A stretch of 64,000 nucleotides of DNA from a virus. Made by a program: the position numbers and the translations under genes. Below the pieces are notes generated by a model that had not been told where the DNA came from, ran no database searches, and saw nothing but the letters and a program-made list of their open reading frames with translations. Below, one piece after another: positions 7,742-37,940 of the stretch. Where the stretch lies: positions 1 to 64,000 of IMG/VR virus record IMGVR_UViG_3300035670_000112. One strand, 5' to 3'. The first letter of the stretch is position 1. Each line of letters begins with the position of its first letter.

Positions 7742-7884
7742 AGTCAGGTGGCGGAATGGCAGACGCAGAAGTTAGAAGAGAGAGATTATCAATGTTGGTT
7801 AGTGGATTGATTACCTTATCTAATGGATTAAATAACTTACACCAACTATTATAGGTTATACAGGTTCGAATCCTGTCCTGATTA
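7742..7884 (+). ncRNA. tRNA-like element (Leu-type D arm and T arm) with a ~93-nt insert replacing the anticodon/variable arms
   Basis: Acceptor stem AGTCAGG/CCTGATT, then TGGCGGAATGGCAGACGC (D arm) and T arm ACAGG-TTCGAAT-CCTGT; no normal anticodon arm and no encoded CCA. Confidence 0.65.
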
Positions 7885-7973
7885 CAGTGAGGTTGCAGAA
7901 AGGTAAGACGTGGCACATTCGGCCACGGATCGTTATGGATCAATTGAGCAGAAGTAAAGTTTAAAACCCATTT

Positions 7974-8183
7974 GTGATGAGATCAGAAGAAGAAATTAAG
8001 GCTCGATTACTTGAGCTGTTTTTAGCCCGTGAAAAATTTGAACGCTTAACTACGGAAGCAGATAATGGATGCCCTAACAAAAAGATGTTATGGTTGGCCA
8101 AACAAACTGGCGTTGGTGTTTATAGCGGTCAAATTGACCTACTTAAATGGGTTTTAAACGATTCTGCGCCCGAAGGCAATTGA
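7974..8183 (+). CDS. Cassette 1 hypothetical protein
   Basis: 69-aa ORF whose stop abuts attC-like site 1. Confidence 0.65.
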   Translation: MMRSEEEIKARLLELFLAREKFERLTTEADNGCPNKKMLWLAKQTGVGVYSGQIDLLKWVLNDSAPEGN

Positions 8184-8266
8184 TCCCAACGGTTGGCGGC
8201 TTTGTGTCAGGCTGCGAAGCGTTGGCATTGAGCGGTCGGGCAGCTTGCACAAAACCGCTGTTATAG
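8184..8266 (+). repeat. attC-like site 1
   Basis: TCCCAAC-G-GTTG-GCGGCTTTGTGTCAGGCTGC ... GCAGCTTGCACAAAACCGC-T-GTTATAG. Confidence 0.75.
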
Positions 8267-8302
8267 CCAGTAGCGGTTTATTAACGATAAAAACTAATTA
8301 AA

Positions 8303-8500
8303 ATGGGAGGGTTAGCAAGAATTTGTAAAATGTATGGCTCAATGGAAGTGAGTGATGCAAATGGTAAAAAAGTAACTTGGCTTTGGGATTATGTAAATGA
8401 CAAACCAAGACTAAAAACAGAAATGACCAAAGAAGAAATAATGGCAAGTGAAAAAGCCAAGTGGATGGCTGTGAAATCTCAATTAGATGCAGAAAAGTAG
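8303..8500 (+). CDS. Cassette 2 hypothetical protein
   Basis: 65-aa ORF with an AT-rich leader; stop just before site 2. Confidence 0.7.
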   Translation: MGGLARICKMYGSMEVSDANGKKVTWLWDYVNDKPRLKTEMTKEEIMASEKAKWMAVKSQLDAEK

Positions 8501-8506
8501 CATTGC

Positions 8507-8637
8507 GCACAACGGTCGGGCATAAGAGAAGTGCCGAAATTAGAAGTACAAATTATGAATTTAAAACGAAAGTAAATATGAAACACAGAACATCAATTTT
8601 AGTAGGAACTCGGCATTTCTTTTATGCCTTGTTAGCG
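8507..8637 (+). repeat. attC-like site 2
   Basis: GCACAAC-GGTC-GGGCATAAGAGAAGTGCCGA ... TCGGCATTTCTTTTATGCCT-T-GTTAGCG. Confidence 0.8.
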
Positions 8638-8886
8638 GTTGTTATTTTATCAGGTTGCGGAAAATCGGTCAATGAAAAAAACTTTGATATAAGTATGCAA
8701 AAAATAAATGGCGAATGGATACGTGCAACATATTCGCTACCAGAAGACGCATATTTTTTCATTGACACTCACAGAGGTAGTTATTCATTACGATACGATA
8801 GAAGTGGTGCTAATTGGTTCACAAAATCAAGAAGTGGAATTACTGTTAGAAACGGAATTATTGATTATCGGATTAATAACCGCTAA
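8578..8886 (+). CDS. Cassette 3 putative lipoprotein
   Basis: MKHRTSILVGTRHFFYALLAVVILSGC has a lipobox (LSGC). The ATG lies in the loop of site 2 and the TAA lies inside CGCTAAC of site 3. Confidence 0.65.
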   Translation: MKHRTSILVGTRHFFYALLAVVILSGCGKSVNEKNFDISMQKINGEWIRATYSLPEDAYFFIDTHRGSYSLRYDRSGANWFTKSRSGITVRNGIIDYRINNR

Positions 8887-9013
8887 CGTGTCGGTGCTAT
8901 ACGATGTGGCGGATTTTCAGCACGAAAGTCCAATACGAAGCACCACAGTTGAATTAAGTAAAAATGTTTAACCGAAGCACGTCAGCCGCCATATTGTATA
9001 GCACATGTTAGCG
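8881..9013 (+). repeat. attC-like site 3
   Basis: CGCTAAC-GTGTCG-GTGCTATACGATGTGGCGG ... CCGCCATATTGTATAGCAC-AT-GTTAGCG. Confidence 0.82.
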
Positions 9014-9039
9014 GTTCGGGCTTCACAAATCAAAATAAA

Positions 9040-9270
9040 ATGACAATAGAATTTAACTTTTACAAAAGCTGGTATGCAGGATTTCGCTTCAAAGATTTGT
9101 TGCCAATATTCAGCTTCACCAAAAATGTTCAGGGCTGGTCATACACTCGTGTATGGTCATTGAATTGGTTTACTTGTGCAGTTTCGTTTCGCCTAATAAA
9201 AAGAAGCGATTTGAACGAAGATAGAAGCGTTTCTCATGAGAAGCATGTCAAACGATATATGGTGTCATAG
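9040..9270 (+). CDS. Cassette 4 hypothetical protein
   Basis: 76-aa aromatic-rich ORF between sites 3 and 4. Confidence 0.65.
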   Translation: MTIEFNFYKSWYAGFRFKDLLPIFSFTKNVQGWSYTRVWSLNWFTCAVSFRLIKRSDLNEDRSVSHEKHVKRYMVS

Positions 9271-9276
9271 CCTGAC

Positions 9277-9406
9277 CGGTAACGTAAAATGTATGAGCAG
9301 TAGCCGATTTCAAAGCACTGACTTATCTTTACGCTAAAATATTAATTAGAAGCAATAGCTTAAATAAGCCCACTGACACGGCTATTGCTTATAAATAGTG
9401 TTATGT
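9277..9406 (+). repeat. attC-like site 4
   Basis: CGGTAAC-GTAAA-ATGTATGAGCAGTAGCCG ... CGGCTATTGCTTATAAAT-AGT-GTTATGT. Confidence 0.78.
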
Positions 9407-9418
9407 GGCGTTATTATT

Positions 9419-9640
9419 ATGAAAATACATTGGATGAATAAAAAGTTGTATATAACAACAGCAAAACCCATTAAAGAAAATGACTTGTATTTAGACGATT
9501 TGGTACACCCAAGTTTAATACAGTATCCATTAGTAATGTGGGGTTTTGCGGATGGAGATAAACGAAAGGTAATACAAAGCCATAGTGGAACAACAAGCCC
9601 CGTAAGTTGTAGTAGAAGAATATTGTTAGTGATTGGCTAA
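9419..9640 (+). CDS. Cassette 5 hypothetical protein
   Basis: MKIHWMNKKLYIT...; stop just before site 5. Confidence 0.6.
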   Translation: MKIHWMNKKLYITTAKPIKENDLYLDDLVHPSLIQYPLVMWGFADGDKRKVIQSHSGTTSPVSCSRRILLVIG

Positions 9641-9644
9641 TGCC

Positions 9645-9778
9645 ACATAACGTGCCGCAGCTTGACGCTGTTGGCGATTTAAACTACTAAACTTTAATTA
9701 AAAAACAAATACTTAATATGAGTACAAAAGATAAATTGAAAAACGAAGCCGCCAATAGCGTTCAAGGTGCTGTTAGCA
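9645..9778 (+). repeat. attC-like site 5
   Basis: ACATAAC-G-TGCC-GCAGCTTGACGCTGTTGGCG ... CGCCAATAGCGTTCAAGGTGC-T-GTTAGCA. Confidence 0.8.
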
Positions 9779-10137
9779 GCAGTGCTTTGCGTTACAATGG
9801 AGGTAAATTGCGTTGGTCGCTTGTTGACTTTGATGCCTTAGAAGATATGGTTAAAGTGCTTGAATTTGGGGCTAAAAAGTATGCAGACAATAACTGGAAG
9901 AAAGGGCTTAAAACACCCGAAATATTTGAAAGTATGATGCGTCACATGACAGCATACATAAGGGGTGAAGATATAGACCCTGAAAGTGGATTACCACACA
10001 CAGGGCATATACTTTGCAATGCAATGTTCTTATCATATATGCAGCGTTTTAAGCCCGATTTTGATACAAGGCACAAAGACAAAAACAAGCGATGCTGTGG
10101 TAATTGGGATGAAAATGGTGTGTGTACGTGTCCGTAG
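9718..10137 (+). CDS. Cassette 6 dATP/dGTP diphosphohydrolase-like protein (DUF5664 family)
   Basis: RYNGGKLRWSLV...VLEFGAKKYADNNWKKG...MRH...GEDIDPESGLPHTGHILCNAMFL matches the family signature. Confidence 0.8.
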   Translation: MSTKDKLKNEAANSVQGAVSSSALRYNGGKLRWSLVDFDALEDMVKVLEFGAKKYADNNWKKGLKTPEIFESMMRHMTAYIRGEDIDPESGLPHTGHILCNAMFLSYMQRFKPDFDTRHKDKNKRCCGNWDENGVCTCP

Positions 10138-10143
10138 CATTGC

Positions 10144-10271
10144 TGCTAACGGTCGAGTGTATGAACCGTTGCGTGATTGAAACAATAAACTTAAAAATAC
10201 AGATATGTTTAATAGAAAAAAGAAACTTGGCAGACGCACTATAAAGCAATGGTTTATACACATTGTTAGGC
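10144..10271 (+). repeat. attC-like site 6
   Basis: TGCTAAC-GGTCGA-GTGTATGAACCGTTGC ... GCAATGGTTTATACAC-ATT-GTTAGGC. Confidence 0.8.
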
Positions 10272-10441
10272 GTTTGTTGCGGAAAGAATACTGCAAGGTT
10301 TGTGGACAAGAACTGACTGAAATTAGAGGTCGATACCCTAAAGAACCAAGAAGGAAAGTATGTGCTTGTTGTGCTACTGAAAAACTTGAATGGATAAATG
10401 AACAGAATAATGTTGAGGCGAAATGTAGCAATAACGCCTAA
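10205..10441 (+). CDS. Cassette 7 zinc-ribbon protein
   Basis: CKVC...CACC. The start is in the loop of site 6 and the stop is in GCCTAAC of site 7. Confidence 0.65.
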   Translation: MFNRKKKLGRRTIKQWFIHIVRRLLRKEYCKVCGQELTEIRGRYPKEPRRKVCACCATEKLEWINEQNNVEAKCSNNA

Positions 10442-10567
10442 CGTATCGGTGCTTGGCGAAGGCTGGGCATTAATAGTACAAAACTTTAAATTTAAAACAA
10501 ATGATTGTAGATAGCACAAACGTTGATTTAGCACAGAAGCCCAGCTTTTGCCAAACACCTGTTATAA
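10436..10567 (+). repeat. attC-like site 7
   Basis: GCCTAAC-G-TATC-GGTGCTTGGCGAAGGCTGGGC ... GCCCAGCTTTTGCCAAACACC-T-GTTATAA. Confidence 0.82.
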
Positions 10568-10815
10568 GCCGTTTTTCTATTCCTGAAACATTGGAATTGA
10601 TTAAGGAGCAAACAGGTTTAAAGTTGGAATTATGCGACTATTTCACAGGCATAAAAGAACATAACGAAAGAAAGTATTTCAATGTGATTTTGCCACAAAG
10701 AACGAGCGAATCAAAAGAGTATGGCATCTTAAAAAGGTTTGCTGATAAATACAAATTAATTTCAGTTGATCCAAATGGATTGAAGCGAGTGGCTGTCTTT
10801 CAAAATGGCTTATAA
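10501..10815 (+). CDS. Cassette 8 hypothetical protein
   Basis: 104-aa ORF starting in the loop of site 7; stop inside TTATAAC of the terminal half site. Confidence 0.65.
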   Translation: MIVDSTNVDLAQKPSFCQTPVISRFSIPETLELIKEQTGLKLELCDYFTGIKEHNERKYFNVILPQRTSESKEYGILKRFADKYKLISVDPNGLKRVAVFQNGL

Positions 10816-10816
10816 C
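10802..10816 (+). repeat. Terminal half site (left arm only)
   Basis: AAAATGGCTTATAAC complements GTTATAAGCCGTTTT at 10561, but no inner stem follows. Confidence 0.65.
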
Positions 10817-12900: not shown

Positions 12901-13073
12901 TCGTATGAGATCAATGGAGGATGCCGAAAATCCATAAAGAGTAGGCGATCAATATAAAACGACAGTATCATGGATGATGAATCGTATTACAGTGAAGAGG
13001 ATCACATTGAAGACCTGAACAATGAGATCCGAGAGGAGATAATTCAGGAATTGTTCAACGATAATGACGACAT

Positions 13074-18918: not shown

Positions 18919-19692
18919 ATGGTAGGGATATACAAAATAACAAGTCCTAATGGACGTGTTTATATAGGGCAGAGTAAGAATCTTGAAGAAAGATTAAGAT
19001 ATTACTCTCTAAAAAGTTCTATAAATCAGGTGAAACTGCACAGATCTTTTAAAAAATATGGAATAAAATCCCATAAATTTGAGATAATTGAGCAGTGCTT
19101 GAAGGAAGAACTGAACAACAGGGAAAGGTATTGGCAAGAATATTATGAAGTATTGACCAAGGGACTTAACTGTCAATTAACAACTTCTGAAAATGCTCCC
19201 CATGAGATGTCTGAGGAATACAAAGAAGCCATAAGTACTACTTTAAAAAGAAAGTATGCAGAAGGAAAAATTGTAAATCCAAGGAAAAATTGCGGAAAAA
19301 TGTTGGATATGTATGATTCTTATGGGAATATTCTCAAAAGAGGATTGTATGTAGAAGAAGCAGTTGATTATTTGAATGTTTCAAATAGATCTGTAATAAA
19401 TAATGGGATCCGTATCGGAAACATTCATATTACAAATAATGATCAGATTGTAATACCTCATAATAAAAATCTTGTTAATACAATGGTTAAGTATGTTACT
19501 GTACATAAAAAAGGAAGAGTACCTCTATATCAAATATTTGAAAATGGAGATATAATCCGATGTTCAGGAGCTTCTAAACATAAAGTTGTTCAAAAAGTGC
19601 TTAATTCCAAAGATCTTATGTATTATAGTAAGAAAAATAATTCTTACTATACTTTTATAGGATTGCTAAATAATTGCCCCTTTATGCAGTAA
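18919..19692 (+). CDS. GIY-YIG homing endonuclease
   Basis: MVGIYKITSPNGRVYIGQS...R...LNNRERYWQ...GLN. Confidence 0.92.
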   Translation: MVGIYKITSPNGRVYIGQSKNLEERLRYYSLKSSINQVKLHRSFKKYGIKSHKFEIIEQCLKEELNNRERYWQEYYEVLTKGLNCQLTTSENAPHEMSEEYKEAISTTLKRKYAEGKIVNPRKNCGKMLDMYDSYGNILKRGLYVEEAVDYLNVSNRSVINNGIRIGNIHITNNDQIVIPHNKNLVNTMVKYVTVHKKGRVPLYQIFENGDIIRCSGASKHKVVQKVLNSKDLMYYSKKNNSYYTFIGLLNNCPFMQ

Positions 19693-19995
19693 TGTTTAAA
19701 AGGTAATTCCGTGAATTGCTGGAAAGCTAAGTAGAATACATTACAATAGCAGAGATCTCCAATTGAGGATGCCATTCTGTGAGCAATGTATTTTATATGC
19801 CGATCAGCAGCCAAGGTTCTCAGAAATGAGTTCAAGGTTCAACGACTAACACATGGAGTCTAAACAGGTAATGCTGTAGACGGTAAAGTGACACGAGCGC
19901 GGAACATCCTATTCGCAATAGGATGATGATATAGTCTGAGCTTATGGGAAACCATAAGAACCAAGAGATAAAAAGCTTTTGGGATAACACAACTG

Positions 19996-37568: not shown

Positions 37569-37666
37569 TGGTAACGTTTTGCAGCTAACATAAGTGGCTG
37601 CTTGTAAGAACTTCTGAATTAAAAACAAATGCTTGTAGCAGCCATTTTTGTTAGGTGCTGTTATAA
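37569..37666 (+). repeat. attC-like site 9 (second locus)
   Basis: TGGTAAC-G-TTTT-GCAGCTAACATAAGTGGCTGCT ... AGCAGCCATTTTTGTTAGGTGC-T-GTTATAA. Confidence 0.8.
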
Positions 37667-37684
37667 GTTGTAAAAATTACGGTA

Positions 37685-37876
37685 ATGGAAAACGAAACAA
37701 AAAAATTAACACAAAAAGAATTAGAAGCAAGAGCATTAATTGCAGGTGATTTGCTACGAGAAGGTGAAGTAACAAGAGTTGAAACGTTCAGAGTTGAAAT
37801 TGATGCTGCTCTTGGTGAAAATACTGGCGATTTGAAGTTTGAAAAGAACACAGACTTTGAAGATGGTACGATGTAG
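37685..37876 (+). CDS. Cassette protein (second locus)
   Basis: 63-aa ORF between sites 9 and 10. Confidence 0.65.
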   Translation: MENETKKLTQKELEARALIAGDLLREGEVTRVETFRVEIDAALGENTGDLKFEKNTDFEDGTM

Positions 37877-37889
37877 TAATTTTTATTGC

Positions 37890-37940
37890 TTATAACGATT
37901 TGCTAAACAACGTTTCAATGTTGTTTAGGTACTGTTAAAC
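37890..37940 (+). repeat. Short attC-like site 10
   Basis: TTATAAC-GATTTG-CTAAACAAC ... GTTGTTTAG-GTACT-GTTAAAC. Confidence 0.65.

Follow-up and report, generated by a model that had tools for sequence, protein, structure and literature searches.

A cassette array in an uncultivated phage

A compact gene array was found in IMG/VR virus record IMGVR_UViG_3300035670_000112, whose positions 1 to 64,000 (64,000 nucleotides, hereafter the window) were analyzed; the source phage contig is 87.4 kb in IMG/VR and is estimated to be 86% complete. At the head of the phage's rightward gene block, positions 7932 to 10816 hold eight small reading frames on the + strand with seven imperfect hairpins between them, six of 120-126 nt and one of 75 nt. 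Each hairpin starts ..TAAC-G and ends T-GTTA.., and the long ones have a stem of ~19 bp and a loop of ~80 nt. Including a remnant at the left end, the array packs seven full sites and one degenerate site into 2.9 kb (Table 1), and its G+C content (37.5%) differs from that of the phage (44.8%) and of the array flanks (42-44%). A single further cassette is located at a second locus. As argued below, the array is probably of the integron type.

The attC sites of integrons are imperfect inverted repeats of 57-141 nt, running from an inverse core RYYYAAC to a core GTTRRRY. In an integron array, the sequence that follows the crossover is already part of the next cassette, so that the two ends of each cassette are complementary to each other; canonically, the gene lies on the top strand upstream of its own attC. 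The gene for IntI, a tyrosine recombinase distinguished by an IntI-specific additional domain, adjoins attI in a complete integron, and the enzyme excises cassettes as circles and inserts them at attI. All sites in the window have attC-type borders, reading ..TAAC ... GTTA.. over 43-126 nt, and the four bases beside AAC and GTT sometimes break the RYYY/RRRY pattern (for example GTTATGT). The resemblance of TGTTA to XerCD/dif sites extends over 5-6 nt only.

The c5 protein carries PF18909 (2.5e-31; also phrog_801), and this domain begins at residue 22, just past the junction at codon 19. The lipoprotein-like open reading frame (ORF) of c2 has its ATG (8578) in the loop of S2, which also contains an A-rich leader; the stop codon TAA of this ORF falls within CTAAC. 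No match to the c0 ORF was found in Pfam or PHROG. The c6 gene shares 81% nucleotide identity with a gene of Cellulophaga phage phi10:1, and no sites were found at the phi10:1 locus. When the array was compared with cultured phages by blastn, only short gene matches to Cellulophaga and Pseudomonas phages were obtained, and at the DNA level the whole window has few matches in cultured phages, which come from Cellulophaga phages and one Pseudomonas phage. A search for relatives in IMG/VR via the nearby DNA polymerase returned none.

The two array ends differ in structure. On the left, S0 reads TAAG-A-CGTGGC..GCCACG-GATC-GTT, with a 6-bp hairpin CGTGGC/GCCACG (read directly). S0 was missed by the covariance model R1 described below, and S0-like minimal sites occupy the equivalent position in two other array contigs (L116 and L129); S0 is probably a dead distal site that fixes the far end of the array. 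On the right, c7 closes with a lone AAC at 10816 and no hairpin follows. We predict that 10816 is the attI-side end of the array.

Table 1. Sites (S) and cassette bodies (c) of the two loci. Each cassette body of the main array runs from its GTT (first coordinate) to its AAC (last coordinate); R1 denotes the covariance model of the site family.
Feature	Coordinates	Strand	Details
S0, minimal degenerate site left of the first cassette	7903..7934	+	TAAG instead of TAAC
c0 body, 69-aa ORF 7974-8183	7932..8190	+	ends GTTATGGATCAATTG / CAATTGATCCCAAC; repeat I25
S1, short 75-nt attC-like hairpin AAC...GTT	8188..8262	+	found by stem detector; not reported by R1 at E<=1
c1 body, 65-aa ORF 8303-8500	8260..8513	+	ends unmatched, score 0
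S2, 123-nt site	8511..8633	+	R1 100 bits, E 5e-21; inverted repeat I4
c2 body, ORF 8578-8886 (102 aa, lipobox-like LSGC)	8631..8887	+	starts in S2 loop
S3, 125-nt site, GCTATACGATGTGGCGG...	8885..9009	+	R1 100 bits; most widespread type
c3 body, 76-aa ORF 9040-9270	9007..9283	+	ends match with a 1-nt indel
S4, 122-nt site	9281..9402	+	R1 68 bits, E 2.5e-13
c4 body, 73-aa ORF 9419-9640	9400..9651	+	91%-identical copy in lake metagenome X5
S5, 126-nt site, ATG 9718 in loop	9649..9774	+	R1 103 bits, E 9e-22
c5 body, ORF 9718-10137 (139 aa)	9772..10150	+	dATP/dGTP diphosphohydrolase
S6, 120-nt site, ATG 10205 in loop	10148..10267	+	R1 82.5 bits
c6 body, ORF 10205-10441 (78 aa, CxxC...CxxC)	10265..10442	+	stop TAA within CTAAC
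S7, 124-nt site, ATG 10501 in loop	10440..10563	+	R1 99 bits
c7 body, ORF 10501-10815 (104 aa)	10561..10816	+	repeat I8, 16 nt at 94%
Second locus, one cassette	37573..37936	+	90-nt site 37573-37662 (R1 59.6 bits); minimal 43-nt site 37894-37936 (R1 24.4 bits); 63-aa ORF 37685-37876; ends match 18/21

The two ends of each cassette are complementary

An initial annotation of the window had proposed that the bases after each GTT pair with the left arm of the next site, and the seven end pairs it quoted were all found in place. When the flanks were permuted against the arms, the score of the true assignment was reached in only 7 of 40,320 permutations (p = 1.7e-4), and in 2 of 40,320 with an extension score. 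Over the 15 nt after GTT, ungapped matches in the window averaged 8.5 for true pairs and 5.2 for all other pairings. The ends of cassettes 1 (7932) and 4 (9007) match only if a 1-nt indel is allowed, and the cassette at 8260-8513, already described as poorly matched, proved to be unmatched.

The same analysis was extended to IMG/VR phage contigs, giving 71 cassettes with those of the window. The score was 7.28 for matched ends, compared with 1.90 for unmatched ends and 2.06 for the two flanks of one site (permutation p < 5e-5). Matched ends thus scored better than random pairings both in the window and in the larger set. Two insertion models were rejected on these data. Hairpins inserted independently at palindromic AACGTT, in the manner of miniature inverted-repeat transposable elements (MITEs), do not fit, as their own flanks pair no better than chance (2.06 vs 1.90), nor does nested insertion, as the pairing is serial instead of nested.

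Circularization in silico gave a consistent picture. With folding energies computed with DNA parameters, circle-junction sites reached -24.7 or -25.5 kcal/mol, depending on where the cassette is cut, compared with -18.5 or -19.6 kcal/mol for the sites in the array and -18.7 kcal/mol when left arms were shuffled (71 phage cassettes; paired Wilcoxon p = 2e-11). These data support the proposal that complete pairing of a site arises only on circularization of a unit, as for integron cassettes.

The pairing, put at 10-16 bp in the initial annotation, was measured at ~14-16 nt. It has a fixed form, in which cassettes start with GTTAnnnnnnGTnnn and end with nnnATnnnnnnTAAC; position 11 is therefore a G.T pair on the + strand, the G lying at position 11 after the G of GTT and the T at the same distance ahead of the C of AAC. 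In a second class of ends, a bulged T takes the place of this G.T. The complementarity of the ends is real, but it is the known footprint of integron cassettes, and only its length is unusual (14-16 nt vs a 7-nt core).

The hairpins belong to a covarying family of sites

A 16-nt pattern derived from S3 and S7 was used to search IMG/VR contigs, which were found to carry near-identical hairpins beside differing flanks. The first detector pattern gave 114 loci, mostly chance matches, and loci were kept only if stem pairing or a covariance model confirmed them. When 36 non-redundant sites were aligned, 17 of the 24 consensus pairs showed compensatory changes (RNAalifold), a G.T pair at AACG/TGTT was present in all 36 sites, and another lay within the stem in 34 of them. 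The common architecture comprises TAAC-G, a bulge, a ~19-bp stem with conserved G.T pairs and a loop, ending in T-GTTA. In attC sites, the recombining bottom strand is marked by an unpaired central spacer and extrahelical bases. Here, the central bulge is asymmetric (4-5 nt on the 5' arm, 1 nt on the 3' arm), the sites showed no canonical extrahelical bases, and Rfam reported no family there. By intrinsic terminator scoring, none of S1 to S7 is terminator-like. Sigma-70-like promoters were not enriched (5 found vs 9.7 expected from shuffles), in a scan that did not extend to Bacteroidota-type promoters.

With the covariance model R1, built from this alignment, ~125 sites were detected at E<1e-6; they come from the window, four whole phage genomes (36-92 kb) and ~30 further contigs. 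Arrays contain up to 12 sites, almost all of them on the same strand, and one contig (L041) holds at least 12 cassettes. The five whole array phages (G000, G001, G002, G004 and G005) have almost no proteins in common, only an endolysin, a tail-fibre domain and phrog_10066, none of which is a recombinase; thus, the arrays cross phage lineages. Hairpin types are 85-95% identical between unrelated phages. No PF01797 match, the mark of an IS200/IS605-type Y1 HUH transposase, was found in the five array-bearing phage genomes.

Related arrays in Bacteroidota adjoin a tyrosine recombinase

A two-arm site pattern was searched in bacterial genome assemblies, in which contigs of metagenome-assembled genomes (MAGs) may include mis-binned phage DNA. 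It was found in 20 contigs, nearly all labelled Bacteroidota; three, among them a complete Pedobacter chromosome, are from cultured isolates. R1 detected 23 sites at no fewer than seven loci (>=7) in the Pedobacter chromosome and nine sites in Algoriphagus confluentis. Beside the array, a tyrosine recombinase of 266-405 residues with PF13495 and PF00589 is encoded in Pedobacter (L151), Algoriphagus (L159) and a 109-kb Bacteroidales MAG contig (L161), the last being phage, prophage or chromosome, with cassettes in the phage-type orientation and a recombinase of 266 aa. Another array-adjoining recombinase is present at L139.

Orthologues of the recombinase, at ~50% identity, were found in 9 of 121 Sphingobacteriaceae genomes. 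Five orthologue loci have R1 sites (L167, L168, L170, L171 and L172), and in all five the array abuts the gene; in the complete chromosome of L167 (G096:C1:1646000-1665999), 12 sites were listed by R1 beside the recombinase. Across ten genomes or MAG contigs, the recombinase lies at the R1-right end of the array in 10/10 loci, a position which suggests that it is likely the cognate enzyme. The integron-integrase family TIGR02249 ranks first for the L159 protein, and the others score higher only with XerA. The best contiguous PDB match of the L159 protein is a Xer-like enzyme, and the L151 and L159 recombinases carry an extra N-terminal stretch of ~90-130 residues.

In the chromosomal arrays of Pedobacter, Algoriphagus and L167, the genes are opposite to the R1 strand and read away from the recombinase end, which is the classical integron direction. 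Chromosomes and the window also have cassette ends in common. One end type, GTTAGCGGTTCGGGCT / AGCCTGACCG[G/C]TAAC (GTTAGCGGTTCGGGCT../..AGCCTGACCGCTAAC), is common to c3 and a Sphingobacteriaceae cassette of L172, and another, GTTATAAGCCGTTT../..AATGGCTTATAAC, to c7 and a Pedobacter cassette of L151. The initial annotation had argued that the palindromes are not simple terminators or repetitive extragenic palindromic (REP) elements, and the covarying attC-like family, the compensatory ends and the recombinase-adjacent bacterial arrays bear this out.

At the attI-side junction of four bacterial loci, AAC is followed by a similar A/T-rich stretch, which reads [T/G]C[C/T]CAAATATACG in L151, L170 and L172.

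Phage cassettes are inverted and carry their own translation starts

The gene orientation in the phage cassettes is the reverse of that in the bacterial arrays: the longest ORF lies on the R1 (folding) strand in 71/71 phage cassettes. In 24 of 69 phage cassettes, the loop of the hairpin contains the most upstream in-frame ATG, at 42-67 nt before GTT, and four genes of the window (those of c2, c5, c6 and c7) start in this way. Stop codons occupy fixed positions in the left arm, in 24 cassettes 13 nt ahead of the C of AAC and in 15 within TAAC. As the genes are read on the folding strand, each phage cassette carries its own translation start beside or inside the loop of its site.

Some genes recur in and around the arrays. 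The S7 site and its leader are found again in two contigs (L008 and L029) ahead of a cytosine-C5 methyltransferase-like gene (N-terminus read from the sequence), and this gene stands behind two hairpin types (L008:2606-3598, L029 and L118, the last in G004). The commonest recurring cluster of cassette genes consists of N6/N4-type methyltransferase-like genes, in eight contigs (motifs identified by eye). A conserved gene of 58-73 aa (phrog_25647, with a weak DUF6290 match) is present in eight array-bearing contigs, including L116:13602-13808 and L119:5548-5742. Where checked (L116, L119 and L045), it follows directly after the lone-AAC end, and in L119 and L045 it has a common upstream motif, ..TA[T/A]AAATGTATTACA... 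Genes for an Erf annealing protein, a YqaJ-type exonuclease and a DUF3127 single-stranded DNA-binding protein (SSB) were found near the arrays of L033, L035, L045, L054, L084, L085 and L086.

Homologous cassettes occur in different contexts

Where homologous cassettes are present in different contigs, the similarity stops exactly at CTAAC or starts at TGTTA. Their ends co-vary, as in GTTACAGGCAG../..CTGCCTGTAAC vs GTTAGTGGCAG../..CTGCCACTAAC. Compensatory end changes include CA/TG to GT/AC and a C-to-T change at position 14 on both sides, and in a homologous pair of 68% identity several end positions change together. Moreover, single cassettes and single sites of the window were found in other contexts in an unrelated lake metagenome (X5), including a 91%-identical copy of c4, whose similarity spans 9413 to 9653, and an identical 70 nt of S1 on a separate 81-nt contig.

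One short contig (L072, IMGVR_UViG_3300020047_014327, 2540 nt) has the same S3-type site at both ends and one mid-contig; this contig is explained either by a circle of two excised cassettes or by an assembly that looped through repeated sites.

The exchange point is most likely AA|C

By the classical definitions, the + strand of the window is the bottom (folding) strand of attC, and several results agree. The + (R1) strand is the more stable one in 86 of 101 sites, and its mismatch cells comprise ~106 G.T and 14 A.C. Hairpin similarity tracks the downstream body in 10 site pairs and the upstream body in one, which is similar on both sides. All 13 S3-type hairpins in phage contigs are followed by GTTA[G/T].., and 12 of them by GTTAG[C/T]GG and a similar leader; the 12 readable left flanks are all different. 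Furthermore, the right-hand end of eleven arrays consists of a cassette body followed by a lone AAC, and at the left ends a minimal or degenerate hairpin lies ahead of the first body. Since the + strand is the folding strand, the exchange point is most likely the AA|C at the left-hand side of each hairpin, corresponding to G|TT on the canonical top strand. Taken together, the strand, similarity, flank and array-end results therefore define the unit as C-G-hairpin-GTT-body-AA. With these limits, each phage cassette forms a gene complete in itself, and its translation start is part of its own site.

The core of the initial annotation, an integron-like reading of the array, is upheld, but it had placed the exchange at G|TT on the + strand, and AA|C is likelier. 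In its exact version, a unit consists of a gene followed by its own site, exchange takes place at the right-hand G|TT, and start codons in loops belong to the upstream unit. Chain complementarity and circle energies fit this layout equally (-25.5 vs -24.7 kcal/mol), and the first GTT, at 7932, has no full hairpin ahead of it. We nevertheless regard it as unlikely, because genes such as the lipoprotein-like ORF 8578-8886 would be parted from their start codons at every move, and S3-type hairpins are followed by a GTTAGCGG... leader, yet preceded by 12 different ends. The tracking of the downstream instead of the upstream body, the lone AAC at right array ends, the recombinase at the right end in 10/10 loci and the better folding of the + strand also speak against G|TT.

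Moving the cut to the other end of the hairpin would shift the cassette limits by one hairpin and leave the complementarity argument unaffected. Against AA|C stands a homologous cassette pair (L077/L133) that has unrelated hairpins on both sides and misfits a single fixed crossover; the AA|C assignment is thus likely, not certain.

A probable integron-type array without an integrase

Our data make it quite probable that 7903-10816 and 37573-37936 represent an integrase-less integron-type cassette array, that is, a cluster of attC sites with no integron integrase (CALIN), in an uncultivated Bacteroidota phage. If the sites are of the attC type, the array qualifies as a CALIN, which has two or more attC sites within a few kb without a nearby integron integrase. 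In the mechanism we propose, the + strand (the integron 'bottom' strand) would fold as single-stranded DNA, and a recombinase supplied in trans by the host or a co-infecting element would cut it at AA|C on the 5' arm. The cassette would be excised as a circle, whose two ends complete a ~40-bp stem, and the circle would re-enter at another site or at the attI-side end, 10816 in the window. The cassette genes may be expressed by read-through from the phage operon.

Several observations weigh against this interpretation. No tyrosine, serine or Y1 recombinase and no PF00589 match were found in the 87 kb of the phage contig, and no tyrosine, serine or Y1 recombinase was found in the four other array phages, three of which are at least 90% complete. 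The ends of the second cassette are unmatched. The array-linked bacterial enzymes score 126-202 bits with TIGR02249, below its cut-off of 265, and the L159 protein aligns with VchIntIA (2a3v) in two blocks with only 23 residues opposite IntI 181-246, so that the IntI-specific insertion is missing. No circle junctions or empty sites were seen in the assembled contigs to which this search was confined, and no joints were seen in the array. Finally, P12002L_attC1, a related site of Polaribacter phage P12002L, is the sole one of six sites that was not integrated by IntI1 (PMC9892861).

An alternative is that the units are regulatory cassettes of the promoter-early stem-loop (PeSL) type, in which the hairpins are expression signals and co-infecting phages exchange cassettes by homologous or annealing recombination, with no site-specific recombinase. 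Such exchange would fit phages that lack a recombinase and in many contigs carry Erf, YqaJ exonuclease and SSB genes near the array. Translation starts in loops, hairpin types that are 85-95% identical across unrelated phages, and the mini-circles documented in T4-type phages (PMC2839356) would fit as well. However, homologous exchange neither needs nor explains complementary ends that are kept by compensatory changes, and it leaves unexplained the invariant AAC/GTT and G.T positions and the breakpoints exactly at CTAAC between unlike hairpin types. In ten loci, sites of the same family adjoin a tyrosine recombinase. The hairpins do not look like terminators, and fewer sigma-70-like promoters were found than expected (5 vs 9.7). 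We therefore consider PeSL-type exchange distinctly improbable. Still less credible is a role in RNA only, without mobility, in which long-range stems close the reading frames and local hairpins serve mRNA processing, stability or translation control: mismatches compatible with G.U on the sense strand, phage genes that all lie on the folding strand and start codons in loops would suit it, but in the bacterial arrays the genes are on the other strand, so that the mRNA would be the poorly folding strand, copies of the same cassettes turn up in unlike neighbourhoods and genomes, a recombinase is linked to the arrays, and an added RNA role in phages, which could coexist with mobility, cannot explain the family.

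Beyond the CALIN interpretation of the window, we lean towards the view that Bacteroidota and their phages share a distinct, largely unrecognized branch of integrons. This branch would combine a Xer-like recombinase that lacks the IntI insertion, attC-like sites whose outer stem is long and whose G.T pairs are fixed, and a separate phage pool of 'inverted' cassettes with promoter-proximal signals and start codons built into the site. Through the enzyme of a host or a co-infecting phage, lytic phages would trade early genes, among them methyltransferases, nucleotide hydrolases and many unknowns. If this holds, it would explain how lytic phages of Bacteroidota swap small early genes as precise units, give a rule for the limits of a unit (starting with the C of one AAC and ending with the AA of the following one), and provide a natural case of a recombination site doubling as a translation start. 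The analysis names a candidate enzyme and candidate sites.

Neighbouring features

Just upstream of the array, at 7742-7884, lies a tRNA-like gene (Rfam tRNA, 32 bits) in which ARAGORN finds nothing. Its two halves are separated by ~91 nt, and in metagenome contigs of other organisms the matches are confined to 7742-7767 and 7858-7886, with 10-40 different letters between. Apparent joints at 7757-7861 were rejected, being other organisms' tRNA genes that match the two halves of this gene. Elsewhere on the + strand, the window contains a group I intron (RF00028, 94.5 bits) at 19655-19958 and a DUF805b RNA motif (RF02914, 42 bits) at 12914-12947.

Comparison with known systems

Integrons are known mainly as bacterial platforms for resistance genes. 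The sites described here resemble those of integrons, especially sedentary chromosomal integrons with homogeneous attC sites, in being imperfect palindromes with AAC and GTT cores that keep structure over sequence. As in integrons, a cassette begins with bases that can pair with its own inverse core, folding is better on one strand than on the other, and unrelated genes are accompanied by near-identical sites; in Bacteroidota chromosomes, a Xer/IntI-like tyrosine recombinase adjoins the arrays, whose genes point away from the attI end. Different from integrons, the outer (R-box) pairing spans 14-16 nt with a fixed G.T or a bulged T instead of 7 nt, the central spacer is asymmetric (4-5 vs 1 nt), the phage genes are inverted relative to the site and sometimes start inside it, and the linked recombinase lacks the IntI-specific insertion (L159 protein) and falls below the TIGR02249 cut-off.

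According to IntegronFinder 2.0, integrons are very rare in Bacteroidetes (PMC9024848), and CALINs in phages are recent and rare in print (PMC9892861). Here, long arrays of one kind of site are found in many unrelated Bacteroidota phages and in chromosomes of Sphingobacteriaceae, Cytophagales and others, and in standard integron searches the array-linked recombinase would escape an IntI call. Among 10,705 cultured phage genomes, Qi et al. (2023) reported 17 CALINs with two to a few sites each, including virulent phage CALINs such as that of the Flavobacteriaceae phage Polaribacter phage P12002L, with DNA methyltransferase genes (PMC9892861). Judged from its primer sequence, P12002L_attC1 is a minimal member of the site family described here and resembles 37894-37936 of the window; R1 found only one further weak site in this phage. 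Compared with those CALINs, the present arrays are longer (eight cassettes in the window, >=12 in L041) and occur in many uncultivated Bacteroidota phages, the likely cognate recombinase is Xer-like and not an IntI, and the gene orientation is inverted.

The nearest homology-based analogue in phages is the PeSL cassettes. In T4-type phages, stem-loops flank small non-essential genes in a variable region, and shuffling through mini-circles was proposed (Arbiol et al., 2010; PMC2839356). PeSLs consist of a strong sigma-70 promoter and a terminator and recombine by homology, whereas the sites of the window and its relatives are not terminators, have AAC and GTT cores and complementary ends specific to each cassette, and are linked in bacteria to a tyrosine recombinase.

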